Shown here: piece after piece, positions 4,883 to 61,272 of the stretch
Layout: each line of letters opens with the position of its first letter
How positions within the stretch are numbered: position 1 is the first letter of the stretch
Assembly: GCA_028690055.1 (NCBI GenBank)
Contig: JAQVBZ010000001.1
Location: 20,452 to 84,451 of the forward strand
Length of the DNA: 64,000 bases
Direction: 5' to 3'
Source of the DNA: Minisyncoccota bacterium
GTDB lineage: Bacteria; Patescibacteriota; Minisyncoccia; JAHIHE01; JAGLIN01
Made by a program: the position numbers and the translations under genes
Notes under the pieces: model-generated
What the model was told of the DNA's origin: nothing
Seen by the model: the letters and a program-made list of their open reading frames with translations, nothing else
Database searches by the model: none

Positions 4883-5040
4883 TCCACTCACGATTTTGTA
4901 TTTGAGACTATACCGGAAATGGTATAAATGTCGGTCAAAAATGTTTTATCTCGCGCGCACACTTTTTCGAGCGTGGTCCTGAATACGGATTAAAAATACG
5001 AATACAAAAGCATTTAAATATATAAAACTAAATTAAAACT

Positions 5041-6114
5041 ATGGTTAAAAAAGAAACCGATAAGAAAGATGAAGAGCCGGTAGTCGCGGATAAAAAAGCC
5101 GCAGCGCCGATCGTCTCGGACAAGAAAGAGAAGGCTATCAAAGACGCTCTGGATGAAATTCAAAGCCGTTTTGGTGAAGGGGCTATTATGAAGTTGGGCG
5201 ATGCCAAGTCAATGGATGTGGATTTTATTTCTACAGGATCTATTTCGTTGGATATCGCACTGGGGGGCGGAATTCCAAAAGGAAGGATTGTTGAAATCTA
5301 TGGATTGGAATCGAGCGGTAAGACTACTCTTACTTTGCATGTAATTTCTGAAGCACAAAAAAGGGGAGAGTCTGCAGCTTTTGTGGACGCTGAGCACGCG
5401 TTGGATCCGGAGTATGCCAAGAAAATCGGAGTCAATACTAAAGAGCTTATCGTATCCCAGCCGGACAGCGGAGAACAGGCTTTGGAAATAGTGGAGGCTC
5501 TTGTCAGGTCTGGCGCAGTCGATGTCATTGTGATCGACTCGGTGGCTGCATTGACACCGCGAGCGGAAATCGAAGGCGAGATGGGGGATTCCCATATGGG
5601 GCTTCAAGCGCGGCTGATGAGCCAGGCGCTTCGCAAATTGACCGCTATCGTTAGCAAGTCCAACTGTACCGTCATTTTCATCAATCAGATCCGTATGAAA
5701 ATCGGCGTGGTGTTCGGCAATCCGGAAACGACTACGGGTGGTAACGCTCTGAAATTTTATTCTTCGGTGCGTATCGAGGTGCGCAAGGCCGCGCAGATCA
5801 AGCAGGGGGAAAATATCATCGGAAATCGCGTTAAAGCTAAAGTGGTAAAAAACAAAGTTGCTGCGCCTTTCAAAGTTGCGGAATTCGATATCATGTATAA
5901 TGAAGGTATCTCCTATCTGGGGGATTTACTAAACGTTGCCGTCGAGCATGGGGTCGCAAAAAAAGGCGGGGCCTGGTATAACTACAAAGAGATAAAACTG
6001 GGACAAGGGTTCGAGGCCAGCAAGAAATTCTTGAAAGACAATCCTAAGATTATCGAGGAGATGGCGAAGGAAGTGAAGGAGGCGATTAAGAAGGAAGAGT
6101 TGGCTGTTGCATAG
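5041..6114 (+). CDS. recA: Recombinase RecA (with ~25-aa K-rich N-terminal extension)
   Basis: Walker [11 protein letters not shown]; L1/L2 region and [37 protein letters not shown] conserved. Confidence 0.95.
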
Positions 6115-6248: not shown

Positions 6249-9101
6249 ATGAAGAATCTAGCGGGGTTATCCTTAATTCTCTTATTGGTGTTAGTATGTT
6301 TGGCGCCGTCTTCTGTCTGTCGTGTGGCAAACGCCGGTACACTTATTACGGAGGAAAGATTTGAAAACAGTATCAGCTCTTACTGGTACAGGGCAATGAA
6401 TAATTATTCCTATTCCGGTACTTACATTACCTCTCCTTTTGTTTCGCCTACTCATGCTTTTCGTATCGAACTGCATAGCAGCGATTCAGAGGTGGAAGGA
6501 GGCATGCGTGCGGAGTTGGAAAGCGAACCGGAAACGCGGCTGCAGGAGCGCACTTACAATTTTAATATTATGCTTCCCGGCGGAGGGGCGGATGATTATG
6601 CGTTGGATAATTACGATTGCGATGAAATTATTGCTCAATGGCATAACAATCCCGATTCCGGGGAAGATTGGACCATGCCACCACTGGCCCTTACTACAAC
6701 TACAAACGAGAAGGGGGAGGGGCGCTATGTACTTCTGAATCTATGGGATGATGCTGCTAAGTCCACGACGGAAGAAATGAAATCGGAAGGCAAAATCAGT
6801 TATTACGATCTTGGTTCGTATACGGAGGATAAGGGTAAATGGGTTAAATGGACTTTTCATGTCAAATGGGGGTGGCTTTCTTCTCATAACACTATTTTGG
6901 AAGTATACAAGAACGGAAGTTTGATCTTTAGTCATAACGGATATCCCAACACCACTAACGATCAAAAGGGTGTGAATCAACAGTTTGGAGTTTATAAATG
7001 GGAATGGGATGGCAGCGGACCCGATTCCAAACTATCGAAGCGCGTAATCTATTTTGATGATGTTAGCGTATATCAGGGATGGGAGGCTCCCGGTTCCACT
7101 TCTAACCCTCCCGCTACCACTTACACCGTCACAGTAAATAACGGCCTAGGCGGAGGAACCTATTCGGCGGGAGAAGAGGTGACTATTGTAGCTAATCTGC
7201 CTGTTTCCGGCAAAGCTTTTGACAGGTGGACAGGAAGTACTCAATATCTTGATAGCATCACTTCATATACCAATACTTTCACCATGCCCGCATCAAACAT
7301 ATTCTTTACTGCAACCTATCAAAACATAGCCCCCGCCACCTACGACCTCACTGTCACCAAAGGCTCCGGTGACGGAGCATACACTACAGGCACGCAAGTG
7401 ACTATCACCGCCAACACTCCCGCTCCCGGCAAGGTATTCGACAAATGGACAGGCGGTACTTCTAGTATAGCCAGCACGACATCATCGACCACTACAGTCA
7501 CGATGCCATCTGCGGATATCACTTTAATTGCCAATTACAAAGATGCCCCCAAGTATACTCTGACAGTAGCAAACGGTACCGGCGACGGCTCATACGCCCA
7601 AGGCGCGGAAACAGTGATCACCGCCGACACTCCCGCCACCGGCAAAGTCTTCGACAAATGGACAGGCAGTACCACCTACATCTCTAGCACGATATCACCA
7701 ACCACTATCGTAACGATGCCAGCTTCATCCATTACCCTCACTGCCACTTACAGAGATTCCGATCTTCTTGATCCTTCTACCAGCTTCCTGATGATAGGCT
7801 ACGGCTCCGGTGACGGTGCTTACCCTGTGGGTACACAAGTTACCATCACCGCCAATGAACCTGCCAAGGGATTGGTCTTTGACAAATGGACAAGAGACAC
7901 TGAATACGTTTCAGACATATACAGCACGACACCTACAGTTACCATCCCCGATCACGGCATCATCCTTGTTGCTTCATACGAGAGATCCGATGATGAGACT
8001 TTCAGACTGGTAGTATCCGGTGGTACCGGAGGAGATGATTATCTCCCCGGCACAGAAGTCACCATCACCGCCGACACTCCCGATACCAACAAAGTCTTCG
8101 ATCAATGGGTGGGAGACATCAGCCATATCGATGATACCGGCAAAGCCATAGCTATCGTAACTATGCCTGAAGAAGACATTACTCTGGTTGCTACATACAA
8201 AACCATAAACCAAGGAGAATACCTGCTTACCGTAAGGAACGGCACCGGTAACGGTTCTTATCTTCCCGGCTCTGAAATCATTATCAAAGCCGACACTCCT
8301 CCTACCGGTAAGATCTTCAGCAGATGGACAGGCAACACCTCTTACATCAACGACATCGATTCAGCCACTGCCACCGTTACGATGCCGTCGCTATCTATCA
8401 CCTTGACTGCCACCTACAAAGACAAAAACAATAATGGCAATTACCCCGACGGTACTCTCATCAAGCTCCCGGATTCTCCCAAGATATATGTCATCACCAA
8501 TGGAGAAAAGAAATGGATATCTACCCCTGAACAATTCGAACAACTGGGATATCAATGGACAGAGGTACAGACTGTCACCGAAGAGATATTGAGTACTCTT
8601 GAAGACATCGAAGATAATCTGATCCGTCTCATAGGAGACTTCAAAATCTATCTGGTTACCAACGGTACCAAACGTCACATCCCCAACCCCGATGTCTTCC
8701 TTAACTACGGTTTCAATTGGAACGATGTCAAAGAAGTGGATGAATCGATTTTCAACAAATACAAAGATGTCTATCTCATCAGAGAGTCAGGCAAAGAATC
8801 CGTATACTACCTGACCCCCGCGGGCATCCGCAAGCACATCCCCACCACAGACATCTTCAACTCTTACGATGACAAATGGGAAGATGTCCAAATCATTTCT
8901 CAAAACGAGATGAATACTTATACTCTTTCCAATCTTGTCAGGTTGGAAGGAACAAATGACGTTTATCTTATCGAGGGCAATATCAAAAGACGTATCCCCG
9001 ATCCAACAATCTTCAATAAATACAAGTTTAATTGGGAATACGTTCTTTCTGTAAATCAAACAGAATTCAACTGGTACCAGAATGGGGGAGAGTTGAGGTG
9101 A
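6249..9101 (+). CDS. Secreted multidomain protein: signal peptide, concanavalin-like jelly-roll (polysaccharide-lyase/glucanase-like) domain, ~10 Listeria-Bacteroides (Flg_new/InlB-B-type) repeats, 4 C-terminal ~55-aa Trp-containing repeats
   Basis: Signal peptide MKNLAGLSLILLLVLVCLAPSSVCRVANA. The N-domain (res ~40-280) has the block ILEVYKNGSLIFSHNGYP...QQFGVYKWEW...VIYFDDVSV typical of jelly-roll lyases. Repeats of ~80 aa follow with consensus YTLTV.NG.G.GSY..G..VTI.A..P..GKVFDKWTG.T.Y.....S.T..VTMP...ITLTATYK. The C-terminus has 4 repeats with pattern IYLVTNG.KRHIP.P.VF..YGFNW..V. Confidence 0.8.
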   Translation: MKNLAGLSLILLLVLVCLAPSSVCRVANAGTLITEERFENSISSYWYRAMNNYSYSGTYITSPFVSPTHAFRIELHSSDSEVEGGMRAELESEPETRLQERTYNFNIMLPGGGADDYALDNYDCDEIIAQWHNNPDSGEDWTMPPLALTTTTNEKGEGRYVLLNLWDDAAKSTTEEMKSEGKISYYDLGSYTEDKGKWVKWTFHVKWGWLSSHNTILEVYKNGSLIFSHNGYPNTTNDQKGVNQQFGVYKWEWDGSGPDSKLSKRVIYFDDVSVYQGWEAPGSTSNPPATTYTVTVNNGLGGGTYSAGEEVTIVANLPVSGKAFDRWTGSTQYLDSITSYTNTFTMPASNIFFTATYQNIAPATYDLTVTKGSGDGAYTTGTQVTITANTPAPGKVFDKWTGGTSSIASTTSSTTTVTMPSADITLIANYKDAPKYTLTVANGTGDGSYAQGAETVITADTPATGKVFDKWTGSTTYISSTISPTTIVTMPASSITLTATYRDSDLLDPSTSFLMIGYGSGDGAYPVGTQVTITANEPAKGLVFDKWTRDTEYVSDIYSTTPTVTIPDHGIILVASYERSDDETFRLVVSGGTGGDDYLPGTEVTITADTPDTNKVFDQWVGDISHIDDTGKAIAIVTMPEEDITLVATYKTINQGEYLLTVRNGTGNGSYLPGSEIIIKADTPPTGKIFSRWTGNTSYINDIDSATATVTMPSLSITLTATYKDKNNNGNYPDGTLIKLPDSPKIYVITNGEKKWISTPEQFEQLGYQWTEVQTVTEEILSTLEDIEDNLIRLIGDFKIYLVTNGTKRHIPNPDVFLNYGFNWNDVKEVDESIFNKYKDVYLIRESGKESVYYLTPAGIRKHIPTTDIFNSYDDKWEDVQIISQNEMNTYTLSNLVRLEGTNDVYLIEGNIKRRIPDPTIFNKYKFNWEYVLSVNQTEFNWYQNGGELR

Positions 9102-11574: not shown

Positions 11575-11685
11575 GCGGAGTAGCGGGATTCATCCCGCGC
11601 GGTTGTCACAAGCCGAAAAATGCGTCGTATATCTTTCACTATTCTCTCGTGGGATAACAGCGCAGACTAAAGTCTGCTACTCCAT
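11575..11685 (+). repeat. MITE-like family 1, copy 1 (~110 bp, ends GGAGTAGCGGGATTCATCCCGCGC ... GCGCAGACTAAAGTCTGCTACTCCA)
   Basis: Terminal inverted repeat GGAGTAGC/GCTACTCC. Each end has its own hairpin (GCGGGAT..ATCCCGC; GCAGACT..AGTCTGC). It lies 30 bp past the ychF stop. Confidence 0.8.
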
Positions 11686-11714
11686 TTTTTTCTATCCGTT
11701 TCTACTCCTTCAAT

Positions 11715-12788
11715 CTATATCTTAAATTCAATCACATCTCCATCCTGTACAATATATGTCTTACCCTCGGTTCGCAGCAGTCCTTTTTCCGCCGCATTTC
11801 CTAGTGAACCCGCCTCGATCAGTTTCTGCCAATTGATGACGCTGGCGCGGATGAATCTTTCTTCAAAGTCGCTATGGATGGCACTGCCGGCTTGGGGCGC
11901 GGTCGAGTCTTTTTTGATAGTCCAGGCTCGGGTCTCGTCTGTACCGGTGGTAAGGAAGGTAATGAGACCGAGCAGGTCGTAGCAACGTGTGGTTAAATCT
12001 TCCAGTGAAGAAACCTTCGGATCCAGCTCCGCTTCTGCTCGAAAAACTTCCGCTTCTTCGGCTTCGAGTTCTCTCAGCTCCAGTTCGAATTGGATAGGGA
12101 GGAAAATCTTATTTTTGATATCGGGCAAGATGGCGTCTAGTTCGGCAGCTTTCTGCTCTTCGCTGACATTGACGACGTAGAGGACCGGCTTGTTGGTGAG
12201 GAGTTGCAGTTCTTTCACAACTTCTTTTTCTTTCTCATCCAGCACTACGGAGTTGGCCATCTTTTCGTCTTCAAGCGCGACTTTGTATTTTTCCAAGACT
12301 GCCTTGAGCGTGATAGCCTTTTTATCTCCCGAACGCACTTCTTTCTCTATTTTAGAAAGCCGTTTGTCTACCGTGTCCAAATCCGCCAAGATGAGTTCGG
12401 TATTGATTACGTCGACATCATGCGCGGGGTCTACTTTGTCGTGCACGTGTGTAATCTTGCCACTCGGAAATCCTCGGACGATGTGCGCGATCATATCTAC
12501 CTCGCGGATGTTGGCGAGGAATTTATTTCCCAGTCCTTCACCCTCGTGCGCGCCCTCGACCAGTCCGGCGATGTCTACGAACTCTATCGCGGTGGGAATG
12601 GTCTTGGCGCTCTTGGAAAACACGGTCAGTTTTTCCAATCTCTCGTCAGGCACTTTAACGATGCCCACATTAGGGTCGATGGTGCAGAAAGGGTAGTTCG
12701 AGATGTCGATCTCTTTTTTGGTCAGGGTCTTGAAAAGCGTGGACTTGCCGACATTGGGCAGTCCGACGATGCCTACTGAAAATCCCAT
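11715..12788 (-). CDS. ychF: Ribosome-binding ATPase YchF (Obg-family GTPase)
   Basis: G1 motif GIVGLPNVGKSTLF, TGS C-terminal domain, 357 aa. Confidence 0.9.
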   Translation of the reverse strand: MGFSVGIVGLPNVGKSTLFKTLTKKEIDISNYPFCTIDPNVGIVKVPDERLEKLTVFSKSAKTIPTAIEFVDIAGLVEGAHEGEGLGNKFLANIREVDMIAHIVRGFPSGKITHVHDKVDPAHDVDVINTELILADLDTVDKRLSKIEKEVRSGDKKAITLKAVLEKYKVALEDEKMANSVVLDEKEKEVVKELQLLTNKPVLYVVNVSEEQKAAELDAILPDIKNKIFLPIQFELELRELEAEEAEVFRAEAELDPKVSSLEDLTTRCYDLLGLITFLTTGTDETRAWTIKKDSTAPQAGSAIHSDFEERFIRASVINWQKLIEAGSLGNAAEKGLLRTEGKTYIVQDGDVIEFKI

Positions 12789-15696: not shown

Positions 15697-15931
15697 CATA
15701 AGCTCCTATTTTGTTATTTTGAATTGTAGGGGCTCAATATCTTGTGCTCTTGCGATTGTGAATCTGCTAATAACGCCATATGATATTAAGTTCTTTGTAA
15801 TATAACGTCGGTAGAGAATGAAATGTTTCCCATATTCCTCAATCGCTCCGCTCATTTCGGAATGACAAATAGAATCTGGTTTCTGACGATATATAATTTT
15901 GACGTTTATGTTTAAAAAGTAGTGCTCATCT

Positions 15932-16736: not shown

Positions 16737-16774
16737 AGGGTACAAGATATTGTGCCCCTACAATTCGAAATTAC
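16737..16774 (+). repeat. Family-4 palindromic core AGGGYACAAGATATTGTGCCCCTACAA
   Basis: Same core occurs at 15724-15757 (rc), 37011-37037 (rc), 39164-39196 and 54490-54530. Confidence 0.7.
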
Positions 16775-19670: not shown

Positions 19671-19942
19671 TAATTTGGCACAGACTGGATTCCCGTCGGA
19701 GTTTATCCTTGTGCAAGCAAGGGGGGGATGACGATATGATACCAAATCAACTTAATCTGTGACATAATGATTTCACTTTTATTCCCCCTTACCCCGACCC
19801 TCTCCCGGCAGGAGAGGGAGAATTCCAAATGCTATATGACTGGACTGTAGAACAGCTTAAGCTAATTTGATATTAGATATTAATACAACGCAGGAAGGGG
19901 TGACAAGTAGTTTCGATATAATTTATTTAATAATTTCAGGAG

Positions 19943-27301: not shown

Positions 27302-27406
27302 TGAAATGACTAATGTCTAACTTATGACGATATACAAGGCTTACCCGGGTATTATAATCGGTTTTTTCCGTTTTGTATAGACCCGGACGTAGTCTATCCC
27401 CCCGAC

Positions 27407-27548
27407 TGTCATTTCGAAATGAGGCGCTACGATTGAGAAATCTGGGGATAGTAGAAAACGCTTATCATTATATTTATAAAAATAATGATATCTGCGCGTC
27501 ATATATTTCCCAGATTCCTCAGGCGAGTACGCCTTTCGGGATGACAAA
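27407..27548 (+). repeat. MITE-like family 2, copy a (~140 bp; TIR TGTCATTCCGAAATGAG ... TTTCGGGATGACA)
   Basis: Terminal and sub-terminal inverted repeats (GATTGAGRAATCTGGG / CCCAGATYCCTCAG). Confidence 0.75.
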
Positions 27549-27586
27549 ATCCCTAGGGTACGAAATAATATAAAAGAAAACCCTTG

Positions 27587-31374: not shown

Positions 31375-33840
31375 ATGAAAAAAAACCTGTTCGCGGTGGC
31401 GGTAATGGCCGGTGTCGGTCTGTTCGCTCTCTGTTCTCCGGTCTCGGCTTCAATTTCCGAATGTGACTACTCGAAAACTTATGACGATGTCAAGACTCTT
31501 TATGTCGCTCGCGATGGCAGCGGAGATTACAATTGTGACGGTACTGATGATGAAGTGGAAATCAACGCAGCTTTTCAGGCGGTTAAAAATAGCGGCGGAG
31601 CGTATGACTCTGTTTTTTTGAAATCCGGAACTTACATTGTCGGTACCAAAATCAATATGGTGACCAATTCGGTTTTTGAGGGGGACAAGGATGCAATTCT
31701 CAAACTGAAAGATCAGGCAGACTGGGAGGTTAATGTGCCGATGATCGGCTCTACAGATATACATACTGACAATGTAGAAATAAAATGTTTCGAGGCGGAT
31801 ATGAATTATGATGGTAACTATTCAACCGATGCTTATAGCTGCCTGGCGGGCTGGGGTGATGAATGCGTTGCGGGCGATTTTACCTGCTGTGAGGCTTACA
31901 GTACTTTCCGCACCACAGGCAAGGGATACTACAACGTGGCCGGTTTCACTTACGGAAAAAATTACTCGATGCACGATATGTATCTGCACGATGGATTGGG
32001 AGACGGACTTAATATTTTGCATAGTAGCAGTGTAAAATTTTATGACAATTTGATTTACAAGATGGGGCACGAAGGATTGTACGTGAAATATTCGGATATT
32101 GCCGAAGCATTCGGTAATGTGATTACCAATCGTACCAATTCGGGTCTGCGCGCGGATGATACCAATCATGTTTCTTTCCATGATAATGACATCACAGCTT
32201 TTGATCATTGGAGCGCCGGGGGGCCGGGCATCGAAATCGTTAAAGATGACAGGTTCGTGACTCAGATGAATGATATCCAGATTTACAACAATTATATCCA
32301 CGGCACTTACGGTCCTGGTATCTGGATTATTGCCAGTGGCACTAATCATACTGCGGCGGATCTTGCAGCAAATATCCATCACAATATTTTCTCTGGAACG
32401 GGTATCAATCCTACCATCAATTGGACGGCGGGGATTCTGACTTCCGGTTTCTATAACCTTACGGTAGAGAATAATGTTTTTGATAAAGTTTATAATGGTA
32501 CCTTACTTGTGTCGAATGCAATTGCGACACCTCCTGCCTCGTCAGGGTATGTGATAACTTTTCGCAATAATACCATTACCGGTACTCAGCCCCAGCGCAA
32601 CACCACGAGTAACGGTTATGGTATTATCAATCTGCTTTCCGGCACACACACGGTGAATTCCGAGAATAATTGTTTCTATGATAATTATGCGGGAGATTAT
32701 TACGGTAACGTGAACAGTGTGGATGATATTCATACCGATCCGCTTTATGCCGACGCTGCTGATCAAGATTACCACCTGCAGTCTGCCTGGGGCAGATGGA
32801 ATGGTTCATCTTGGGTGAAAGACGCGGAGACTTCTCCTTGCATCGATGCGGGATACGCTGCTTCCGATTATTCTCTTGAACCTGAATCCAACGGTGGCAG
32901 GATAAATATCGGCCGCTACGGCAACACCGTCGAAGCCAGTCTTTCTTTCACACCTGTTTTAATCCCTGTGGCTACGACCTACGACCTTACGATAAATGGA
33001 GGATCCGGTTCCGGTTCATATGTGGAAGGTCAAAACGTAGTTATTATCGCTGATGCTTCAGCTACAGGCAAAGTATTTGACAAATGGATAGGCGACACGA
33101 CTTATGTTTCAAATGCAACTGCTGCTATCGCTAATGTGACAATGCCGGCAGACGGCGTCTCTCTGACTGCAACTTATAAAGATGTTTATTACAATCTTAC
33201 TGTTGATGGTGGTACCGGTTCAGGATCGTATATTTACGGCCAGCAAATCAGTGTTACTGCTGATGCTCCGAGTGCCGGAAAATTATTCGACAAATGGACG
33301 GGAGATATTTCTTATATCACCAGCGCCATTTCAGCCGCTACCACTGTGACGATGCCGACAGGCGCCGCCTTTCTTACCGCGACTTACAAGGATGCTCCGG
33401 TTACGACCTACGACCTTACGGTCAGTGGCGGTTCGGGCTCCGGGTCTTATGTTTCAGGAACCAAAGTGACCATTACGGCTGCTACTATTACGGGCAAAGT
33501 GTTTGTCGGATGGATAGGAAGCACTTCTTATCTTTCCAGTACCACTGCTGCGACCGCTACGGTGATTATGCCGGCTAAGGCGATTACGTTGACCGCCACC
33601 TACAAAACGGCTTACTACCTCACTATTTACAACGGTTCCGGTTCCGGATGGTACGCTGCCGGTACTAAGGTGACTATCGCTGCCAATGCTCCGGCAGTGA
33701 GGCAAGTTTTCTATAGATGGACAGGCAGCACCAGCTACGTGGCGAGGATCACTTCCGCCACCACTACGGTTACTATGCCGAGTAAATCCATCTCTCTTAC
33801 TGCGACTTATAGTACTTCAAGGTCTTGGTATTATAGATAA
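31375..33840 (+). CDS. Secreted right-handed parallel beta-helix (pectate-lyase-fold) protein with 5 C-terminal Listeria-Bacteroides (Flg_new-type) repeats
   Basis: Signal peptide MKKNLFAVAVMAGVGLFALCSPVSA. beta-Helix coils with N/H/D-rich PbH1 repeats (LHDGLGDGLNILHSSSVKFYDNLIY..., VSFHDNDITAF, IHHNIFSG). It ends with the typical DYHLQS...SPCIDAG. Five repeats follow: YDLTINGGSGSGSYVEGQNVVIIADASATGKVFDKWIGDTTYVSN...VTMP...LTATYKD. Confidence 0.8.
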   Translation: MKKNLFAVAVMAGVGLFALCSPVSASISECDYSKTYDDVKTLYVARDGSGDYNCDGTDDEVEINAAFQAVKNSGGAYDSVFLKSGTYIVGTKINMVTNSVFEGDKDAILKLKDQADWEVNVPMIGSTDIHTDNVEIKCFEADMNYDGNYSTDAYSCLAGWGDECVAGDFTCCEAYSTFRTTGKGYYNVAGFTYGKNYSMHDMYLHDGLGDGLNILHSSSVKFYDNLIYKMGHEGLYVKYSDIAEAFGNVITNRTNSGLRADDTNHVSFHDNDITAFDHWSAGGPGIEIVKDDRFVTQMNDIQIYNNYIHGTYGPGIWIIASGTNHTAADLAANIHHNIFSGTGINPTINWTAGILTSGFYNLTVENNVFDKVYNGTLLVSNAIATPPASSGYVITFRNNTITGTQPQRNTTSNGYGIINLLSGTHTVNSENNCFYDNYAGDYYGNVNSVDDIHTDPLYADAADQDYHLQSAWGRWNGSSWVKDAETSPCIDAGYAASDYSLEPESNGGRINIGRYGNTVEASLSFTPVLIPVATTYDLTINGGSGSGSYVEGQNVVIIADASATGKVFDKWIGDTTYVSNATAAIANVTMPADGVSLTATYKDVYYNLTVDGGTGSGSYIYGQQISVTADAPSAGKLFDKWTGDISYITSAISAATTVTMPTGAAFLTATYKDAPVTTYDLTVSGGSGSGSYVSGTKVTITAATITGKVFVGWIGSTSYLSSTTAATATVIMPAKAITLTATYKTAYYLTIYNGSGSGWYAAGTKVTIAANAPAVRQVFYRWTGSTSYVARITSATTTVTMPSKSISLTATYSTSRSWYYR

Positions 33841-34167: not shown

Positions 34168-36996
34168 ATGGATACAAAAAAAATTTCTATAAGAGGCGCG
34201 AGAGTGCACAATTTAAAAAACGTAAGCGTGGATATTCCGCGTGGAAAGCTGGTGGTGGCCACTGGTCCATCGGGCAGCGGGAAGTCGTCGCTTTTTTTTG
34301 ACACGATTTATGCCGAAGGGCAGAGACGGTATTTGGAGAATATTTCCGACTATCCCAAGCAGTTTCTGAATATTCTGAGCAAGCCGGACGTGGATCAGCT
34401 GGAGGGGTTGTCGCCGGCTATTTCCATCGGGGAAAAAACTTCCGCTCGTTCGCCGCGTTCGACCGTGGGGACAATGACGGAAATCTATGACTATATGCGG
34501 GTCCTCTTTTCGGTCGAGGGCAAGGCGCACTGTGCGAATTGCGGGGGAAGTCTCGAGAAACATTCTTCGGGCAAAGTGGCTGATTGGGTGATGTCGCTGC
34601 CCAAAGACGCACGTGTTTTTATTATGGCTCCGATTATAGTGGGTGAAGGAAATGCAGCCGATTTGATACGCAAATATGGGAAGATGGGATATCAGCGGAT
34701 CCGCATCGGCGACGAGGTGATGGAGCTCAAAAATTTTTCTTGGCCCAAGAACCTCGACCAGATTGACAAGTTTGATCTTATAATCGACCGGTTCAAATTC
34801 AAAGAGAAGGAAGTCAGTTATTCGGGCGTGTTGGATTCTATTGAGACAGCCTTCGGCATCTCGGGAGGGTTTGCGATTGTTAACTATTATTCCCTCAAGC
34901 AGGACATCGAGCGGGAAGAATTTTTTTCCGACCATCTCTACTGTCAGAAATGTGCCACGGGCTTCCAGGAAATAGAGCCTAAACTTTTTTCTTTCAATAA
35001 TCCTTACGGTGCCTGTCCTCATTGCACGGGACTCGGAGTGAAACTGGAAATAGATTCCAGCCTGGTGATTCCGAATCGCGCGCTTACTTTGGCGGAGGGG
35101 GCGCTCCGTCCGTGGGCAAATTTACTTAATAAGTGGGACGAATATATCGATACGCTCAAATCTATCGAGAAGAAATATCACATACCGATCGATATTCCGG
35201 TGGACAAGATGAAAGAGAAAGACATACTCTTTGTTCTCTTCGGTGAGAAACGGGAGAGGGGGGACGCCTGTGAAAAGCGCCCGGATAAGGATGCGACAAA
35301 CGAGTACCCGGGCGCGGTCGGTATCTTGGAGCAGAAATATTATGAGACGAATTCCGATTATATCCGCACGGAATTGGAGAAATATATGGTCCGCAAGATC
35401 TGTCCGGCCTGTGGTGGCGATCGACTCAACAAGAATGCTTTGGCGGTGGGAATAGAAGGCAAATCCATCAGTGATTTGACGCGACTCAATGTCAAGGAAG
35501 AGATTGCGTTCCTTGCCGCTTTGCGTGGCAAACTGAACCCGAAGTCTCAGACGGTGGCGGAAGAAATTATGAAGCGGCTGGCATTCTTGGAAGAAATCGG
35601 TTTGAATTATCTTTCGTTGATGCGTTCTTCCGAGACTGTATCTGCGGGTGAGGCGCGGCGGGTAAAATTGGCTACGCAACTTAGTTCTTGTCTGCAGGGT
35701 ATAACCTATATCCTTGACGAACCTTCTATCGGATTACACCGTAAGGATGATGGTAAGCTTTTGACTTCAATGCGGAAATTGCGTGATTTGGGGAATTCAG
35801 TTCTTATCGTTGAGCACGATGATTATTTCATCCGCAATGCGGACTTCATCATCGATATGGGACCGAAGTCGGGTGAGGCGGGCGGAGAGATTATCGCAGT
35901 GGGTACGCCGGAAGAGATTATGAAATCGGACTGCGTGACCGGTCAATATCTCTCGGGCAGAAAGAAAATAGAACCGCAGAAGCATTTGCGTAAGGGCAGT
36001 GGTAAATTCATCACTATCGAGCATGCGACTGAACACAATCTAAAAGATGTAAGCGTCAAGATTCCGTTGGGGAAATTCGTTTGTGTAACAGGTGTTTCGG
36101 GTTCGGGAAAATCTACGCTCATCAACGATATCCTTGCCAAAGCACTCGCCAAAAAACTCCATCGCGCGCAGGCAGAGCCGGGCAAGTGCAAGAAAATTGA
36201 TGGCATCAAGAACGTGAGTAAAGCGATCTGTATCGACCAGTCGCCGATCGGGCGCACTCCGCGCAGCAACCCGGCAACTTACACTGGTATCTTCACTCAT
36301 ATCCGTGAACTATTTGCCGATACCGTGCAGTCGAGAAATAAAAAATTCAAAGCCGGGCATTTCAGCTTCAATGTGAAAGGCGGACGTTGTGAAAATTGTA
36401 AAGGAGACGGCGCTACCAAGCTGGAGATGTATTTTCTTCCCGATGCTTACGTCGAATGCGAACAGTGTCATGGCAAGAGGTACAATAGTGAGACTCTCGA
36501 GGTGGAGTACAAGGGAATAGACATTGCCGCTGTGTTGGATATGAGCGTAGATCAGGCGCTGAAATTTTTCTCCGACGTGCCGGCGCTTTTCCACAAGCTC
36601 TCTGTTTTGAGTGATGTCGGTCTGGGGTATATGCGTTTGGGTCAGAGCGCCACTACACTTTCCGGTGGGGAGGCCCAGCGCATCAAGCTGGCGACAGAGT
36701 TGGCGCGCCCGGTCAAAGAGGGTAAGACGATTTATATCCTCGACGAGCCGACGGTTGGCTTGCATTTCGACGACACCAAAAAGCTTCTCAGTGTGCTTTC
36801 CAAGCTGGCGGACCGTGAGAATACAGTGTTGGTGATCGAGCACAACATGGAAGTCATCAAGTGCGCCGATTGGATTATTGATTTGGGACCCGATGGCGGC
36901 GACCAGGGAGGGGAAGTTCTTTTCGAAGGCACGCCTAAAGATATCAAAAAATGCAAACGCAGTTATACGGGGAAGTATTTGAAGGAAGTTTTGTAG
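34168..36996 (+). CDS. uvrA: Excinuclease ABC subunit A
   Basis: 942 aa. Two ABC ATPase modules ([10 protein letters not shown] and [10 protein letters not shown]), zinc-finger cysteine clusters ([26 protein letters not shown]). Confidence 0.95.
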
Positions 36997-37059
36997 GAGG
37001 CTATCGCGTTTCGTAGGGGCACAATATCTTGTGCTCCTTTTGGTTATACGAAAGATAAC

Positions 37060-37168
37060 GTGGAGTAGCGGGATTCATCCTGCGCTGCTATCCCAAGCCA
37101 TAAAGTCATTGCATATATTCTTCCTGTCCGCATTGGACAACCGCGCAGACTGAAGTTCTCTACTTTGT
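37060..37168 (+). repeat. MITE-like family 1, copy 2 (3' end degenerate)
   Basis: GTGGAGTAGCGGGATTCATCCTGCGCTGCTATCCCAAGCC...CGCGCAGACTGAAGTTCTCTACTTT. Confidence 0.75.
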
Positions 37169-37241
37169 GTATTTTTGCTACCGGGTCTAAAATGACGTAT
37201 TTCTTAACTATATGCTAAAATGATGGTATATGAACATATTA

Positions 37242-37360
37242 TGGAGTAGCGGGATTCATCCCGCGCTGCTGTCCTAAGCCTTTAAATCCTACGCCATCGC
37301 GCATTCCATTCGCATCGGACAACTGCGCAGGTTAAAACCTGCTACTTCGTGTATTTTCGC
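37242..37360 (+). repeat. MITE-like family 1, copy 3
   Basis: ATGGAGTAGCGGGATTCATCCCGCGCTGCTGTCCTAAGCC...GCGCAGGTTAAAACCTGCTACTTCG. Tandem with copy 2, 75 bp apart. Confidence 0.8.
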
Positions 37361-39061: not shown

Positions 39062-40926
<1,865 letters not shown>

Positions 40927-40992
40927 TGTGTATCGCAAGAGAGGCTCGGGCTCGTTGTGGGTCCGGCCTTTCTCGTGAAACATTACAGCATG

Positions 40993-41134
40993 TGGAGTAG
41001 CGGATTTCATCTCTCGCTGTATTGTATGGAGTAGCAGGATTTATCCCGCGCTGCTTCCCAAGCGGAGAAATACGCCGATTATACTTGTACTTTTCGCATA
41101 GGATAGCCGCACAGACTAAAGTCTGCTACTCCAT
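40993..41134 (+). repeat. MITE-like family 1, copy 4 (with a duplicated, degenerate 5' arm)
   Basis: Partial arm at 40993-41025, then a full copy GGAGTAGCAGGATTTATCCCGCGCTGCTTCCCAAGC...GCACAGACTAAAGTCTGCTACTCCA. Confidence 0.8.
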
Positions 41135-41176
41135 TGTGGCGGATATTATCTCCTTGTGTCTGATAAGGAGTAATCA

Positions 41177-41248
41177 GTCCTCGTAGTTCAATGGATAGAA
41201 CGTAGGTTTCCGGAACCTATGATACGGGTTCGATTCCTGTCGAGGGCA
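41177..41248 (+). tRNA. tRNA-Arg (anticodon CCG), no encoded CCA
   Basis: Acceptor GTCCTCG/CGAGGGC, anticodon stem TAGGT/ACCTA with loop TTCCGGA, T-arm GGGTTCGATTCC. Confidence 0.85.
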
Positions 41249-41368
41249 CAGTGAAAATAAAAGCCGGTATGTCCGGCTCTTGTTGTCAATCTTCTTGATA
41301 TTTCCTGATTATATCGCTTTTGCAAACCATCGAAGCATGTCTACAAGAACTACGGAACGTTTTTTTAC

Positions 41369-41474
41369 GTGGAGTAGCGGGATTCGTCCCGCGCTGCTGT
41401 CCCAAGCCGAGAAATGCATCAAATACGTTTTTCCCGTATGAGATAGCCGCGCAGACTAAAGTCTGCTACTCCAT
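41369..41474 (+). repeat. MITE-like family 1, copy 5
   Basis: GTGGAGTAGCGGGATTCGTCCCGCGCTGCTGTCCCAAGCCGAGAAATGC...GCGCAGACTAAAGTCTGCTACTCCA. Confidence 0.85.
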
Positions 41475-41655
41475 TACGATATCATTTATATATAGTATAA
41501 TTTGAGTTCTTTCTTAACGGTATGATTGTGATATAATAGAAGCAATCTCATTAATATAATTTTTCGCATTCGACTCTGCCTATGCTCGCAGCAGAAACCA
41601 AAAATTTTTACAAATATTTTACTTTTAGACTGAATTAATTTTTAAGCAGAAAACT

Positions 41656-42207
41656 ATGGATTTTACAATCATCCTTATGGTGGCTCTCGCCGCTATAGTT
41701 CTTTGGTTCATTGCCATTTACAACGGACTCGTCAAGCTCAAAGTCCGCACCGATGAAGCTTGGAGTGATATCGATGTTCAGCTCAAACGTCGATATGATC
41801 TTATTCCTAATCTTATCAACACCGTGAAGGGCTATGCCGCGCACGAGAGCGGAGTTTTTGAGAGAGTCACCGAAGCTCGTACCAAGGCGATGAGCGCCGG
41901 AACTGCCGCCGAAAAAGGCCAAGCAGAAAATGCTCTTTCCGGTACGCTCAAGAGTTTATTCGCGGTTGCGGAGAATTATCCGGAGCTTAAGGCCAATACC
42001 AATTTTTTGGAACTGCAGAGAGAACTTTCCGACACAGAAAACAAGATTCAGGCCTCACGCAGATTTTACAACGGCAACGTCCGCGACCTCAACACTAAGA
42101 TTCAGATTTTTCCCGACAGCATCGTGGCTGGCATTCTCAGCATAACCAAGAGAGAATTCTTCGAGATCGAAGAAGGGGAGAAGGCGGTACCGAAGGTCGA
42201 GTTCTAA
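41656..42207 (+). CDS. lemA: LemA family protein
   Basis: N-terminal TM, then IYNGLVKLKVRTDEAWSDIDVQLKRRYDLIPNLINTVKGYAAHE...AENYPELKANTNFLELQRELSDTENKIQASRRFYNGNVRDLN. Confidence 0.8.
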   Translation: MDFTIILMVALAAIVLWFIAIYNGLVKLKVRTDEAWSDIDVQLKRRYDLIPNLINTVKGYAAHESGVFERVTEARTKAMSAGTAAEKGQAENALSGTLKSLFAVAENYPELKANTNFLELQRELSDTENKIQASRRFYNGNVRDLNTKIQIFPDSIVAGILSITKREFFEIEEGEKAVPKVEF

Positions 42208-42464
42208 ATTTCAGTTCGAAAGTATATCACAATGGCCTGATATTCAATGTGTCTCTCTTAATTTGTCATTCTGGAATTTTGGTAACCCAAAATACCCAGT
42301 ACATGGTTTTAATTGACCCGCCAAGATACTTCGCATAATTAAGATATCGTTTTTGGATAAGATATTTTCTTCAAACGTAAAGTGTAAACTCTTAGGTAGG
42401 CAAATCTCAGAACCGCTTTATTGAACCTGCCAAATAGCATTTCCCGCTACAAAACCATTATTTT

Positions 42465-42560
42465 TGTCATTCCGGTAGGAATCCCTTGTCCCTTTATCGG
42501 TATTGTAATATCTGCTAGCTTAGTAATAGATAGTTTAAGGGATCCCTGCGGGATGACAAA
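42465..42560 (+). repeat. Short family-2-related MITE (TIR TGTCATTCCGG...CGGGATGACA)
   Basis: ~95 bp. Ends match family 2, with internal GGAATCCCTTG/AAGGGATCCC pairing. Confidence 0.55.
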
Positions 42561-42692
42561 ATGTGGGTTCTTGTCGCAGGGAAAGAAGTCCTGTATATTT
42601 GAAACGTTTATAAAGTTATGCAGAACTTCGGTTAAAGATGTCTGTTCCTCTACCGATGGTTTCTAAATTGTAGCAATTTAAATCTTACAAAC

Positions 42693-52815: not shown

Positions 52816-52946
52816 AAATCTGGGTAAGGATTTGATGGTCATTGTATAATGATTAATCCTTAGCTTTCCAATCTGAATTAGCAGCTTTGATTATTTCTTT
52901 CCGTATTCGGTACGCAGTAGTGCACTTATTGCGCGACCCATCCTAT

Positions 52947-53086
52947 TGTCATTCCGAAATGAGCGGAGCGATTGAGGAATCTGGGAATAATACTAAGCGC
53001 TTATAACATTTCATATAAACATATCACTAGAAGATTCTTCCGCATTTCCCAGATCCCTCAGTCGAGTACGATTTTCGGGATGACAA
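52947..53086 (+). repeat. MITE-like family 2, copy b
   Basis: TGTCATTCCGAAATGAGCGGAGCGATTGAGGAATCTGGGAATAAT...CCCAGATCCCTCAGTCGAGTACGATTTTCGGGATGACAA. Confidence 0.85.
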
Positions 53087-53102
53087 AGTTATATATGTTA
53101 TT

Positions 53103-53890: not shown

Positions 53891-54104
53891 AATATTCTCA
53901 CCTCCTTTCTTGATTTCAATAAACATTCCGACCTTTGTGTCACCATCTATATTGAATATATATTCATAATGACTTTTCGTCAAGTTTTCTGATCGAATAT
54001 AAAACTGAATGAAAAATGTCGCCAAGGAAAAAGTAATCGTTCAATCTGAAGGGGGGGGCAGGTACGCAGTAGCGCGCCTACAACGTGACACAGCCTCCCC
54101 TATA

Positions 54105-54245
54105 TGTCATTCCGAAATGAGCTACTGCGACCCCGGAATCTGGGAATAATGCTATGCGCTTATAATATTTTATATAAATATAACGCCAGAAGATTTTCCC
54201 GCATTCCCCAGATCCCTCAGTCGAGTACGACTTTCGGGATGACAA
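54105..54245 (+). repeat. MITE-like family 2, copy c
   Basis: Same orientation as copy b, ~85% identical. Confidence 0.85.
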
Positions 54246-54261
54246 GGTTGCGTTATGTCTC

Positions 54262-54395: not shown

Positions 54396-54535
54396 GTTGT
54401 CATTGCGACGACGCGGCAATCCCGAGGCTATGCGAAACAACCCGTATGTAACTACTGGTGAAATATAGTAACAGGATTGCCACGTCGGAAAGGGCACAAG
54501 ATATTGTGCCCCTACAGTTCGCAATGACAAGTCGT
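54396..54535 (+). repeat. Family-4 extended element (TIR TGTCATTGCGA...TCGCAATGACA) with palindromic core
   Basis: See 39062-39200. Terminal TTGTCATTGCGACG / CGCAATGACAAG inverted repeat. Confidence 0.7.
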
Positions 54536-56574: not shown

Positions 56575-58419
56575 ATGGATAACGATAAGAAGAAAAAAAT
56601 ACAAGGATTTCGTGGCGGTTCTCCGGGAAGCATCGGAGTCGGCCCGGTATCCAAAGCGAAAGATTTTAAGAAAACCTCGCGCGCTTTTATCAGCTATCTG
56701 AAACCGTACTGGGGAAGTTTTATTTTGGTGCTGGTTTTGGCGATTTTGAGTACACTCTTTTCTTTGCTAGGGCCGAAAATTCTCGGGGATATGACGGACA
56801 TCGTCACTCGTGGAATCTTTGGCGCGGAAGGGGGAATTGATTTCGATGCGATTGCTCGCACAGGCTATCTTTTGGTGGGCTTATATGCCTTAAGTGCCAT
56901 CTTCGGATATATGCAAGGTTGGATAATGGCGGGAGTTTCACAGAAGATCACTTACGCCTTCCGGCGCGATATCTCTCACAAGATTTCGAAATTGCCCCTC
57001 AGCTATTTTGATCGGCACGAGAAAGGTGACATTATCAGCCGGGTAACGAACGATGTGGAAGCCGTCAGCCAGAATCTCAATCAGAGTTTGGTGCAAGTCG
57101 TCACTTCAGTAGTGTCCCTTGTCGGTATTTTGGTTATGATGATTTCCATCAGTGTCCCGATGACATTAATCGCGCTTTTGATATTGCCGGCGAGTATGAT
57201 ATTTATCCGTTTGGTCATGAAGAAATCCCAGCGTTTTTATCAGCGTCAACAAAGTTCTTTGGGAGAGATGGATGGTCATATCGAAGAGATGTTTTCCAAT
57301 CACGCTATCGTCAAAGCTTACAACGGCGAAAAGGATTCTGTCCGTCGTTTTAGTGGTATCAACGAGCAGCTCTACGATAGCGGTTGGAAAGCGCAATTCA
57401 TGTCGGGGCTTATGATGCCCGTAATGCACTTCATCAGCAATCTTGGCTATGTCGCTGTGACATTGGTGGGAGGCTATCTCGCCATACAAGGAAGGGTGAC
57501 TATCGGTGGCATCCAGGCATTTCTCCAATATATGAATCAATTCACCCAGCCCATCAGTCAGGCCGCGAACATCGCCAATGTTTTTCAGTCGACCATCGCG
57601 GCAGTGGAACGGATATTCGAATTCATTGATGAGCCGGAAGAAAGGATGGAAAAAAATACTTTGCCCGCGCCAAAAACTATTGCTGGTCGGGTGGAATTCA
57701 AGGATGTCTTTTTCGGTTATGATCCGCAAAAGCCGGTCATCCATGATTTTAGCGCGAGCATCGAACCGAAGCGCAATGTGGCTATCGTCGGTCCGACGGG
57801 GGCAGGCAAGACGACTCTCGTCAATCTTCTGATGCGCTTCTATGATATCGACCGCGGCACTATCACTGTCGACGGAGTGGATATCGCCAAGATGAAACGC
57901 CAAGATGTGCGACGTATGTTCGGTATGGTGCTTCAAGATACGTGGCTCTTCAGCGGTACGATAGCGGAGAATATCGCTTTCGGAAAACCTGATGCTACGC
58001 GCGAGGAAATCATCGCCGCAGCCGAGAAAGCTCACGTCGATCATTTCATCCGTACGCTATCGCTGGGTTACGACACAGTTATCGCCGATTCAATCGATAA
58101 TATTTCCGCCGGTGAAAAACAGCTTCTAACTATTGCCCGTGCCGTCTTGGCTGATGCGCCTATGCTCATCTTAGACGAGGCGACCAGCTCGGTCGATACC
58201 CGCACCGAGAGCCTCATCCAATCCGCGATGGAAAAGCTCACTCATGACCGTACCAGTTTCGTCATCGCGCACCGCCTCTCGACCATCAAGAACGCAGATT
58301 TGATTCTAGTGATGAAAAGCGGAAACATTATCGAGCAGGGGAAACATCAGGAGCTTTTGGAAAAAGGAGGTTTCTATGCAGTGCTTTATAACAGTCAGTT
58401 TGTTGGAGCGAGGGGTTAA
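56575..58419 (+). CDS. ABC exporter, fused permease/ATP-binding subunit (subunit 2)
   Basis: Walker A GPTGAGKTTL, signature ISAGEKQLLTIARAV, Walker B LILDEATSSVD. Confidence 0.9.
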   Translation: MDNDKKKKIQGFRGGSPGSIGVGPVSKAKDFKKTSRAFISYLKPYWGSFILVLVLAILSTLFSLLGPKILGDMTDIVTRGIFGAEGGIDFDAIARTGYLLVGLYALSAIFGYMQGWIMAGVSQKITYAFRRDISHKISKLPLSYFDRHEKGDIISRVTNDVEAVSQNLNQSLVQVVTSVVSLVGILVMMISISVPMTLIALLILPASMIFIRLVMKKSQRFYQRQQSSLGEMDGHIEEMFSNHAIVKAYNGEKDSVRRFSGINEQLYDSGWKAQFMSGLMMPVMHFISNLGYVAVTLVGGYLAIQGRVTIGGIQAFLQYMNQFTQPISQAANIANVFQSTIAAVERIFEFIDEPEERMEKNTLPAPKTIAGRVEFKDVFFGYDPQKPVIHDFSASIEPKRNVAIVGPTGAGKTTLVNLLMRFYDIDRGTITVDGVDIAKMKRQDVRRMFGMVLQDTWLFSGTIAENIAFGKPDATREEIIAAAEKAHVDHFIRTLSLGYDTVIADSIDNISAGEKQLLTIARAVLADAPMLILDEATSSVDTRTESLIQSAMEKLTHDRTSFVIAHRLSTIKNADLILVMKSGNIIEQGKHQELLEKGGFYAVLYNSQFVGARG

Positions 58420-58434: not shown

Positions 58435-58539
58435 GTGGAGTAGCGGGATTCATCCCGCGCTGCTGTCCCACTCGAAAAATATGTCGTATACGTTCTGCCT
58501 GCGTTGGACAATCGCGCAGGCTAAAGTCTGCTACTCCAT
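58435..58539 (+). repeat. MITE-like family 1, copy 6 (starts 16 bp after the ABC transporter stop)
   Basis: GTGGAGTAGCGGGATTCATCCCGCGCTGCTGTCCCACTCG...GCGCAGGCTAAAGTCTGCTACTCCA. Confidence 0.85.
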
Positions 58540-58625
58540 GTGAGGTATCGTGTGAGTAAATTTATATTTGTAATTTTACGATGATTGGCGCAATCCCGTC
58601 ATTATATTTTCACCCTCCTCAATTT

Positions 58626-58768
58626 TGTCATTCCGAAATGAGCTACTGCGATTGAGGAATCTGGGAACAATATTATACAATGGCAGAATTACTTTTATAA
58701 ATATAACGTCAGAAGCTTCTTCCGCATTTCCCAGATCCCTCAGTAGAGTACAACTTTCGGGATGACAA
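58626..58768 (+). repeat. MITE-like family 2, copy d
   Basis: Full-length copy, followed by a family-3 module at 58785-58862. Confidence 0.85.
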
Positions 58769-58784
58769 GGTAATATTATGCCGC

Positions 58785-58923: not shown

Positions 58924-59120
58924 TGTCATTCTGAGCGGAGCAGCGCGGAGTCGAAGAATCCCTTCATCACCACCTGTCCCATCTCATACAGTTTTATTAT
59001 AATGAAGCGATTCCTCGACAGGCTCGGAATGACAAAGTTTATGCCATCTCGTAGGACCCGTAGAGAAGCCGATTTATCGCGTCTTTCTTTGACAGCGGCC
59101 ATAAACTTGGATGTTTTTTG
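58924..59120 (+). repeat. Divergent family-2 variant (TGTCATTCTGAGCGGAG...GGAATGACAA) plus family-3 module copy d
   Basis: Same terminal architecture with a different interior. Followed by CGTAGAGAAGCCGATTTATCGCGTCTTTCTTTGACAG. Confidence 0.65.
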
Positions 59121-60437: not shown

Positions 60438-60506
60438 TATGATCGTGCAGCTTGTTGCGCAAGCGATTGTTGTACACTCCTTATTCCACGGTAATATCTT
60501 TACATT

Positions 60507-60644
60507 GTCATTCCGAAATGAGCGGAGCGATTGAGGAATCTGGGAATAATACTATTCACTTATAATGTTTTATATAAACATAAAGGCAGAATACTCTCCC
60601 GCATTTCCCGGATCCCTCAGATGAGTACATCTTTCGGGATGACA
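60507..60644 (+). repeat. MITE-like family 2, copy e
   Basis: Nearly identical 5' arm to copy b (TGTCATTCCGAAATGAGCGGAGCGATTGAGGAATCTGGGAATAATACTA). Confidence 0.85.
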
Positions 60645-60728
60645 TAGTCATATCGTGTTGTGGAATCGGGGATCTGAGTTTTGCCTTCTTTGCCATCTTG
60701 AAAATATTAAATAAATTAAAAAAATCCC

Positions 60729-61193
60729 ATGGTACTTTCTTCTCAAGCAATCAAATCAGCAGTGCAAAAAAGCGAATTGGACATCACGCCCTTTGATGAA
60801 AAAAATCTGAAGCCGGCAAGCTATACTTTTACACTTGCGGCAAGATTATTGATTCCGAAAAAAGTTTCTCTGATTGTTATGGGCGGCGAGCAGGAATACG
60901 AAGAAGTTGTGATGGGATTGGACGGATTCGTTTTGCAGCCGGGGGATTTTGTACTCGGGTTTACGGCGGAGCATCTCGCGCTCAAAAATAATTATGCCTG
61001 CTTTCTTTCTGCACGCGGCTCATGTGCGCAGGCAGGACTTTCGGTCCTCCTCAGTTCCAGCTTTGCCGAGCCAGACACGGATAACCCTATAATCTTGGAA
61101 ATCCATAACGCCGGAAAGTCTCCGATCAGGTTGGAAGCGGGAATGAAGATTGTTAAGGGAATATTTATGCCGGTAGAGGAATACTCGGAGTAG
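60729..61193 (+). CDS. dcd: dCTP deaminase / dUTPase-superfamily protein (short, 154 aa; 3' end supplied by a MITE)
   Basis: Blocks QPASYTFTLA, PGDFVLGFTAEHLAL, SARGSCAQAGLSV, IILEIHNAGKSPIRLEAGMKIVKGIFMPV match the dcd/dut beta-barrel fold. The stop codon TAG lies inside family-1 copy 7. Confidence 0.65.
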   Translation: MVLSSQAIKSAVQKSELDITPFDEKNLKPASYTFTLAARLLIPKKVSLIVMGGEQEYEEVVMGLDGFVLQPGDFVLGFTAEHLALKNNYACFLSARGSCAQAGLSVLLSSSFAEPDTDNPIILEIHNAGKSPIRLEAGMKIVKGIFMPVEEYSE

Positions 61194-61272
61194 CAGACTT
61201 TAGTCTGCGTGCATTTATGGTAACGTTATTATCGCATGGGACAACCGCGCGGGATAAATCCCGCTACTCCAT
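61187..61272 (-). repeat. MITE-like family 1, copy 7 (reverse orientation, ~86 bp, internally shortened)
   Basis: GGAGTAGCAGACTTTAGTCTGCG...GCGCGGGATAAATCCCGCTACTCCA is the reverse complement of the family-1 ends. Confidence 0.8.

Follow-up and report, generated by a model that had tools for sequence, protein, structure and literature searches.

A palindromic repeat recurs along the 64-kb stretch of DNA analysed here (the window), and copies of it lie on both sides of a tRNA-Arg gene in the spacer between groEL and lemA. The questions raised by this locus were what kind of element the repeat is, by what means it was spread, and whether its hairpins serve the genes that it follows. The first-pass annotation had described it as a MITE (family 1) with a terminal inverted repeat and two independent hairpins, always placed at gene 3' ends, and had likened it to REP/BIME-type or terminator-providing elements. 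In the following, L with a number designates a sequence locus outside the window.

Copies of the repeat in the window

With up to three mismatches allowed, seven matches to the left-end consensus GGAGTAGCGGGATTCATCCCGCGC and five to the right end were obtained in the window, whereas dinucleotide shuffles gave an expectation of 0.00 matches for either end. A nhmmer profile built from the aligned copies returned seven full copies and a solo left end, and nothing else (Table 1), and the multi-copy nature of the repeat was thereby confirmed. It is a palindromic element of 84-112 nt, mostly about 105 nt, and its copies make up about 1.2% of the window. The two copies said to bracket tRNA-Arg do so, the tRNA gene having the anticodon CCG. 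Some entries of the original copy list had to be revised. What had been listed as a copy at 40993 proved to be a single left unit in a decayed state, and the full copy of this site starts at 41026. The copies at 37060 and 61187 are both present but are not consensus copies, the former having a decayed right end and the latter being inverted, shorter and equipped with one inner arm of the other type.

The flanks of the window copies are unrelated to one another, so that the copies represent separate insertions and not, as had been considered a refuting outcome, pieces of one larger duplicated gene. The central loops of the copies share only 64-85% identity, and such strong divergence gives no sign of a recent burst. 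In the inverted copy at 61186 the TAG within the GGAGTAGC tag (61191-61193) was observed to coincide with the stop codon of a dCTP-deaminase-like ORF (60729-61193), so that this gene runs into the repeat and is terminated by it.

Table 1. Coordinates of the repeat copies, of features in their surroundings and of further repeat families. Positions refer to the window unless a locus is named.
Feature	Position	Strand	Detected by	Description and context
REPIN copy	11575-11686	+	consensus matches, profile	A-A type; 107 nt between unit ends; 29 nt past the stop of minus-strand ORF 11715-12788; RNA fold z = -3.6
REP unit of the 11575 copy	11577-11598	+		GGGAT/ATCCC stem
REP unit of the 11575 copy	11662-11683	-		AGACT/AGTCT stem
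REPIN copy	37060-37170	+	consensus match, profile	right unit decayed (GCAGACTGAAGTTCTCTACTTTG); first of a tandem pair, downstream of uvrA (stop at 36996)
REPIN copy	37241-37352	+	consensus match, profile	second of the tandem pair; AGGTT/AACCT stem variant in right unit; ends 50 nt before ORF 37402
Solo left REP unit	40993-41016 (profile match to 41020)	+	profile	decayed (GGAGTAGCGGATTTCATCTCTCGC)
REPIN copy	41026-41136	+	consensus matches, profile	between groEL and tRNA-Arg
REPIN copy	41369-41476	+	consensus matches, profile	between tRNA-Arg and lemA; strongest fold of all copies, z = -6.5
REPIN copy	58435-58541	+	consensus matches, profile	starts 16 nt past the stop of ORF 56575-58419
Short REPIN	61186-61272	-	profile	B-A arm type; inverted; about 87 nt (84 nt between unit ends)
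tRNA-Arg(CCG)	41177-41249	+		context; between two REPINs
Terminator-like hairpin and T tail	40946-40966	+		context; directly after groEL, upstream of the REP units
Terminator-like hairpin	41262-41278	+		context; after tRNA-Arg, upstream of the second REPIN
GTAGGGGCACAATATCTTGTGCCC family	15726-15749	+		
GTAGGGGCACAATATCTTGTGCCC family	16738-16761	-		
GTAGGGGCACAATATCTTGTGCCC family	37013-37036	+		
GTAGGGGCACAATATCTTGTGCCC family	39169-39192	-		
GTAGGGGCACAATATCTTGTGCCC family	54492-54515	-		
Palindromic family of about 145 nt	27406-27555, 52945-53094, 54104-54253, 58626-58770, 60504-60653			
Palindromic family of about 145 nt, variant	58927-59045			
CGGGAGAGGGTCGGGGTGAGGGGGAA-core repeat	19733-19880			
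CGGGAGAGGGTCGGGGTGAGGGGGAA-core repeat	L115 8853-8990, 11987-12134			

Anatomy and arrangement of the hairpin units

Each end of the repeat is formed by a 24-nt unit with the structure GGAGTAGC-N4-TTYA-N4'-GCGC, which contains a stem of 6-7 bp. A GTAG tag is present at the 5' foot of this short hairpin and is at least 90% conserved; a palindrome with GT[AG]G at its 5' foot is the definition of a REP (PMC6006769). For the analysis of the stems every match to GGAGTAGC (up to one mismatch)-N12-GC was collected in the window and the CPR loci. At least four of the five stem pairs were kept in 114 of the 120 GGAGTAGC-N12-GC matches, and at least ten stem versions were encountered (GGGAT/ATCCC, GAACT/AGTTC, AGACT/AGTCT, AGGTT/AACCT, GGGTT/AACCC, GCAAT/ATTGC, GCGAT/ATCGC, AGAAT/ATTCT, GAGCT/AGCTC, and GGACT/AGTCC). 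Among 62 distinct units, taken with no pairing filter, 92.2% of the cells were paired compared with 28-43% in slid controls, and 95 double-change cells were observed compared with 35 in shuffles, none of the 500 shuffles reaching the observed number. The hairpin is thus under selection through compensatory changes across related genomes, and both sub-terminal hairpins that had been described are real. Viral contigs served as a negative control and yielded 13 matches to the constant parts, all with at most three of the five pairs, i.e., chance matches without hairpins.

Inward of the two units lie conserved inner arms of type A (GCGGTTGTCCCA(A/C)GC) or type B (GYGCATTTAAAA), together with a variable loop. 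A-A doublets of about 105 nt are the main form in the window, and A-B doublets, such as the copy at 61186, measure 84-97 nt. Neighbouring units up to 300 nt apart were arranged as 42 inward-facing (+-), 14 -+, 12 ++, and 13 -- pairs, with a gap that was mostly 38-64 nt in the +- pairs. With the exception of the decayed copy at 37060 the window copies folded better than shuffles on either strand (z = -3.5 to -6.5). The dominance of +- pairs and the stable folding of the copies are what is seen in the inverted doublets known as REPINs.

A transposase associated with the units

For the identification of candidate RAYTs, tblastn was run with an E. coli YafM sequence that was used as a lead only, and the matches were then verified by Pfam, NCBIfam, and PDB searches. 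Two ORFs were retrieved (L015:1893-2414 and L021:12-545). Both match Pfam Y1_Tnp; they score 99 and 103 bits, respectively, on the NCBIfam model NF047646 "REP-associated tyrosine transposase" (cut-off: 80), and stay below the cut-off of 55 of the IS200 model NF033573 with 30-34 bits. The best PDB match of the L015 ORF is TnpArep (4ER8), with which the HuH motif (HYH) and Y..NP align. By these measures the two proteins are RAYTs and not IS200 TnpA; the NCBI name of the L015-type protein is only "transposase". Five positions of the E. coli TnpArep have been discussed for GTAG recognition (PMC6006769), and according to our reading of the alignment W94 and E100 are conserved in the CPR RAYTs whereas the other three (Q95, H101, and R104) are not.

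A homologue search returned 41 relatives, many of which lie on contigs shorter than 3 kb because CPR assemblies break at the repeats. Clusters of units adjoin the RAYT gene in five independent related loci (L015, L021, L121, L125, and L142). In L121, L125, and L142 the mapped units lie to either side of the gene, often in a ++-- pattern; a decayed unit copy lies downstream of the gene in L015, and in L021 units occur upstream, the sole side that lies within the locus. A RAYT gene flanked by REPs constitutes a REPtron (PMC6006769), and in these five related genomes the RAYT is accompanied by REPs of its own family. The solo unit at 40993 in the window is set 11 nt ahead of the next unit and belongs to the same ++ spacing class as units in the RAYT-flanking clusters. 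More distant RAYTs carry diverged units, namely GGAGTATAAAACTTTAGTTTTATC- and GGAGTGTAAGGATTTATCCTTACC-type units at the RAYT of L145 (45% identical) and GGATTCCACGCTTTAGCGTGA-type hairpins at that of L127 (39% identical), which indicates that the unit changes together with the neighbouring RAYT. The gene order RAYT-(TPR)-HisKA-response regulator-T2SSE is conserved in L015, L121, L125, and L142, all of them partial loci. Neither a RAYT gene nor any of these neighbour genes was found in the 64-kb window.

A further tyrosine transposase gene was observed in L117 (11169-11573) just upstream of lemA. It encodes an IS200-type TnpA of 134 aa (Pfam Y1_Tnp) with CTCGGGGGCTTGCCCCCGAG hairpins at its bounds, and it was rejected as the cognate RAYT since it is of the IS200 type and has its own, different hairpins.

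Genomic position and the possibility of an RNA role

The multi-copy units are largely extragenic, 132 of 145 lying outside ORFs of at least 120 aa. Each of the seven window copies occupies a spacer that separates co-directional genes, at a distance of -7 to about 100 nt beyond the preceding stop codon or tRNA end. In spacers of this kind at related loci, 29 of 39 clusters have the upstream stop, and not the next start, as the nearer gene boundary (binomial p = 0.003). The placement at gene 3' ends that had been proposed was upheld in the window and is a preference in the larger set. Together with the selection on the hairpins, this preference for the region just after stop codons would also be expected of a host RNA element, i.e., a 3'-UTR stabiliser against exonucleases, a terminator or an attenuator that is kept for its function and not by transposition, and the survey by Di Nocera et al. 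(2013; PMC3733652) reports that REPs in other bacteria are found behind coding sequences and are plausibly transcribed.

Several results render such a purely host-serving element improbable. A terminator scan of 40800-41750 flagged only the two hairpins at 40946-40966 and 41262-41278, and no T-run was found after the REP hairpins, which at this locus are thus not intrinsic (Rho-independent) terminators. As groEL and tRNA-Arg possess T-tailed hairpins of their own ahead of the REPINs, the supply of a terminator is not the role of the REPINs here, and the proposal of a terminator-providing element found no support at this locus. In a search of the window against Rfam 15 only tRNAs passed the gathering threshold, and at E-values up to 1 the other matches were only a miRNA precursor and a snoRNA, both far below threshold. 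The units moreover occur in both orientations and are clustered around RAYT genes. Finally, the stems are homogenised within a genome, each genome favouring its own pair of stem variants, and differ between genomes, for which copying from master copies is a better explanation than gene-by-gene maintenance. A secondary RNA role beside transposition is compatible with these results.

Insertion without target-site duplication

A classical MITE is a deletion derivative of an insertion sequence that has terminal inverted repeats and is moved in trans by a DDE transposase. The repeat resembles such an element in being short, non-coding, and multi-copy, and its two ends are indeed inverted repeats. 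However, the sequence shared by the two ends comprises only 8-9 nt (YGGAGTAGC ... GCTACTCCR), beyond which the ends carry different hairpins; the presumed terminal inverted repeat thus amounts to the tag that the two inverted REP units have in common. A pyrimidine at position -1 and a purine at position +1 extend the inverted symmetry by one base. Target-site duplications of at least 3 nt were found in none of the 42 doublets, and 2-nt flank matches were at chance level (three of 42 doublets compared with about 2.6 expected), in agreement with the insertion without target-site duplication that is typical of REP/REPIN-RAYT systems. Solo units, ++ and -- tandems, and clusters also occur, which would not be expected of an element bounded by terminal inverted repeats, and no longer element bounded by GGAGTAGC...GCTACTCC was present among the loci fetched, a set smaller than an exhaustive genome search. 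The sole protein found in association with the repeat is the RAYT. Enzymes of this HuH/Y1 tyrosine transposase class recognise hairpins and not terminal inverted repeats, and in place of the cognate transposase with matching terminal repeats that the first-pass annotation had anticipated it is such an enzyme that was found. The classical MITE reading is therefore largely refuted, and we consider it very improbable.

Distribution and spacer occupancy

GroEL of the window is 100% identical to a protein (MDD3005993.1) recorded as a MAG chaperonin of Candidatus Pacebacteria/Paceibacterota, a CPR lineage. In an exact-pattern scan using one genome per species, the left end was found only in five CPR MAGs, which carry the labels Candidatus Saccharibacteria, Paceibacterota, and "uncultured bacterium". 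Between the window and 32 CPR loci no long DNA similarity was detected besides the element and a tRNA-Ser, and a tblastn comparison of the window with those MAGs revealed almost no genes in common. The relatives retrieved by a metagenome scan with the LemA of the window were no more than 77% identical, and the unit was absent from all of them. The relatives of the window are either at least 99.9% identical and carry the same insertions, or share about 78-80% identity in coding DNA and cannot be aligned in their intergenic DNA. No insertion polymorphism was found in the near-identical strain copies (at least 99.9%; L033, L116, L118/L119, L122-L124, and L126). BLAST with the flanks found no base-exact pair of an empty and a filled site, and presence and absence are accordingly given at the level of spacers.

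The spacer between groEL and lemA measures 132 nt in L120 and contains neither a unit nor a tRNA, compared with 730 nt and three REP features in the window; GroEL of L120 is 89% identical to that of the window, and the GroEL proteins of L115 and L117 are 94 and 91% identical, respectively. In L115 and L117 a REP cluster is likewise present between groEL and tRNA-Arg, but with other stem variants, and the interval between tRNA-Arg and lemA, which in the window holds the copy at 41369, contains other sequence and no units. A REPIN after lemA occurs only in L117. In the spacer between HisK and the response regulator, REPINs are present in L015 and L125 and none in L003, L021, and L121.

Synteny of groEL and lemA with short spacers is widespread. 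Among 80 LemA-related loci of greater distance, 14 were observed to have the two genes adjacent, five of them with a spacer of 79-167 nt. In the window, L115, and L117-L119 the groEL-lemA spacer contains the tRNA-Arg(CCG) gene, which is absent from that of L120 (8675-8805). Given its absence from L120 and the short spacers of the distant loci, the tRNA gene may have entered the groEL-lemA spacer together with the repeats.

Identity of the element

The repeat exhibits every sequence-level trait of REP/REPIN-RAYT systems that could be tested, and lacks those of a DDE-type MITE and of an intrinsic terminator. We therefore regard it, with a probability of roughly 0.85, as a REPIN/BIME-like doublet of a REP family whose cognate RAYT (HuH/Y1 class) is encoded elsewhere in the genome. 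The first-pass annotation was right to suggest a REP/BIME-type likeness, for which the cognate RAYT of the relatives now provides backing. In single-stranded DNA each unit would fold into its own hairpin, the RAYT would recognise the GTAG-containing tag at the hairpin foot, and by cleaving and rejoining the strand it would copy or move doublets into intergenic DNA without duplicating the target. Judged by sequence, catalysis of this spread by the RAYT is the likely route, and the genome from which the window derives presumably still encodes the enzyme.

The idea that the units form a binding-site array for a chromosomal protein (a nucleoid protein, gyrase or similar), spread by recombination and unrelated to the RAYT, could account for the conserved tags (GGAGTAGC and GCGC) next to variable stems and recalls the reported binding of IHF, DNA polymerase I, and gyrase to E. 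coli REPs (PMC6006769), but deserves hardly any credence, as it predicts neither the co-divergence of unit and RAYT nor the clustering at RAYT genes, and no candidate binding protein was found. A CRISPR-like reading was dropped because the spacers are not arrayed and the units are inverted, and a protein-coding one because no ORF is conserved across the copies.

Comparison with known systems

The REPINs of Pseudomonas fluorescens SBW25 likewise consist of two REPs inverted around a spacer, form a long hairpin, and are extragenic and multi-copy, and copies of the repeat also flank the transposase gene of that system (Bertels and Rainey, 2011, PMC3116915; PMC3337134). As in SBW25, the RAYT gene described here is located in a conserved neighbourhood, a setting that may point to vertical inheritance. 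In contrast to SBW25, the loops of the window copies are very divergent and not clustered around a master sequence, the tag is longer (GGAGTAGC), and the organism that carries the repeat belongs to the CPR; the two systems share no sequence similarity.

With the REP/BIME elements and the REPtron (TnpA-REP) of E. coli the repeat shares an imperfect palindrome that carries a GTAG tag at its foot (4ER8; PMC3479197; PMC6006769), the inverted pairing of two flavours (Y and Z in E. coli), the variation of linker or arm modules (here the type A and type B arms), and the occurrence of several REP pairs around the RAYT gene, 4ER8 being also the top PDB match of the CPR RAYT. The hairpins described here are short and near-perfect (6-7 bp with a TTYA loop), unlike the long and bulged ones of E. 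coli, no IHF-type linker motif was identified in the repeat, and the CPR enzymes differ from TnpArep at the three recognition positions named above.

The survey of the GTAG REP superfamily by Di Nocera et al. (2013, PMC3733652), which covered more than 80 species from eight phyla and 24 GTAG families, describes small palindromes with an unpaired GTAG at one end. Many of them are close units in opposite orientation, and most follow a coding region and have neighbouring genes that point the same way; the present repeat is alike in all these respects. Elements of the IS200/IS605 group (e.g., IS608) also employ a Y1/HuH transposase and sub-terminal hairpins on single-stranded DNA and insert without target-site duplication. 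They differ in that they carry their own transposase between the hairpins, and the IS200-type copy in L117 is unrelated to the repeat family.

Other repeats and gene calls

Family 1 is accompanied in the window by at least two further families with a GTAG tag and by several more palindromic repeat families. A second family of GTAG-tagged hairpins (GTAGGGGCACAATATCTTGTGCCC) has five copies in the window compared with zero expected, was present among the loci compared only in the same strain (L033), and is probably another REP family. The copies of a palindromic family of about 145 nt have the ends TTGTCATTCCGAAATGAG ... CTTTCGGGATGACAA, and most of them are followed by a third GTAG unit (GTAGAGACGCCGATTTATCGC) and a T-run (53109, 54269, 58792, and 59060). 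A palindromic repeat of about 140-150 nt with the ends AATTAACTTAATC ... GATTAAGTTAATT and the core CGGGAGAGGGTCGGGGTGAGGGGGAA is common to the window and L115, where one copy is nested inside a REPIN downstream of groEL. Positions 42451-42588 of the window and 12845-12982 of L115 have a different repeat in common.

Two large ORFs of the window, 6249-9101 (950 aa) and 31375-33840 (821 aa), contain tandem modules of about 70 aa (period of about 213-219 nt), and the gene table of L033 assigns Beta_helix and Flg_new_2 domains to the second of them. Small "genes" appear in public gene tables or ORF lists over REP clusters, namely at 4913-5158 of L120 (81 aa, with a unit at 5035-5056) and at 1470-1793 of L015. 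These calls are probably annotation artefacts caused by the repeats, which may thus generate spurious ORF calls such as the one in L120.

REPINs in a streamlined lineage

REP/REPIN-RAYT systems have mostly been reported from Proteobacteria and a few other phyla. In full-text searches, no publication connecting RAYTs or REPINs to the CPR/Patescibacteria was found, the text of PMC3733652 lying outside those searches, and the statement that no element of this sequence had been described is consistent with our literature searches. The repeat is a known kind of element, here in an ultra-small CPR host.

Genomes of CPR bacteria are thought to be under strong streamlining, for which the coverage of the window by family 1 and the presence of further repeat families are notable. 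The repeats may be used as lineage markers. As a tentative proposal, which we rate somewhat below even odds, the REPIN-RAYT system persists by vertical descent in this streamlined CPR (Paceibacterota) lineage, the unit co-diverging with its RAYT from the GGAGTAGC type through the GGAGTATA type to the GGATTCCA type as the RAYTs become more distant (45 and 39% identity), and the REPINs staying at orthologous spacers across about 78-80% coding identity. If true, this would extend the picture of a "long-lived intragenomic replicator" to bacteria under strong genome reduction, and it would hint at repeats that are tolerated or even used by the host, e.g., at mRNA 3' ends or as stop codons like the one in the copy at 61186.
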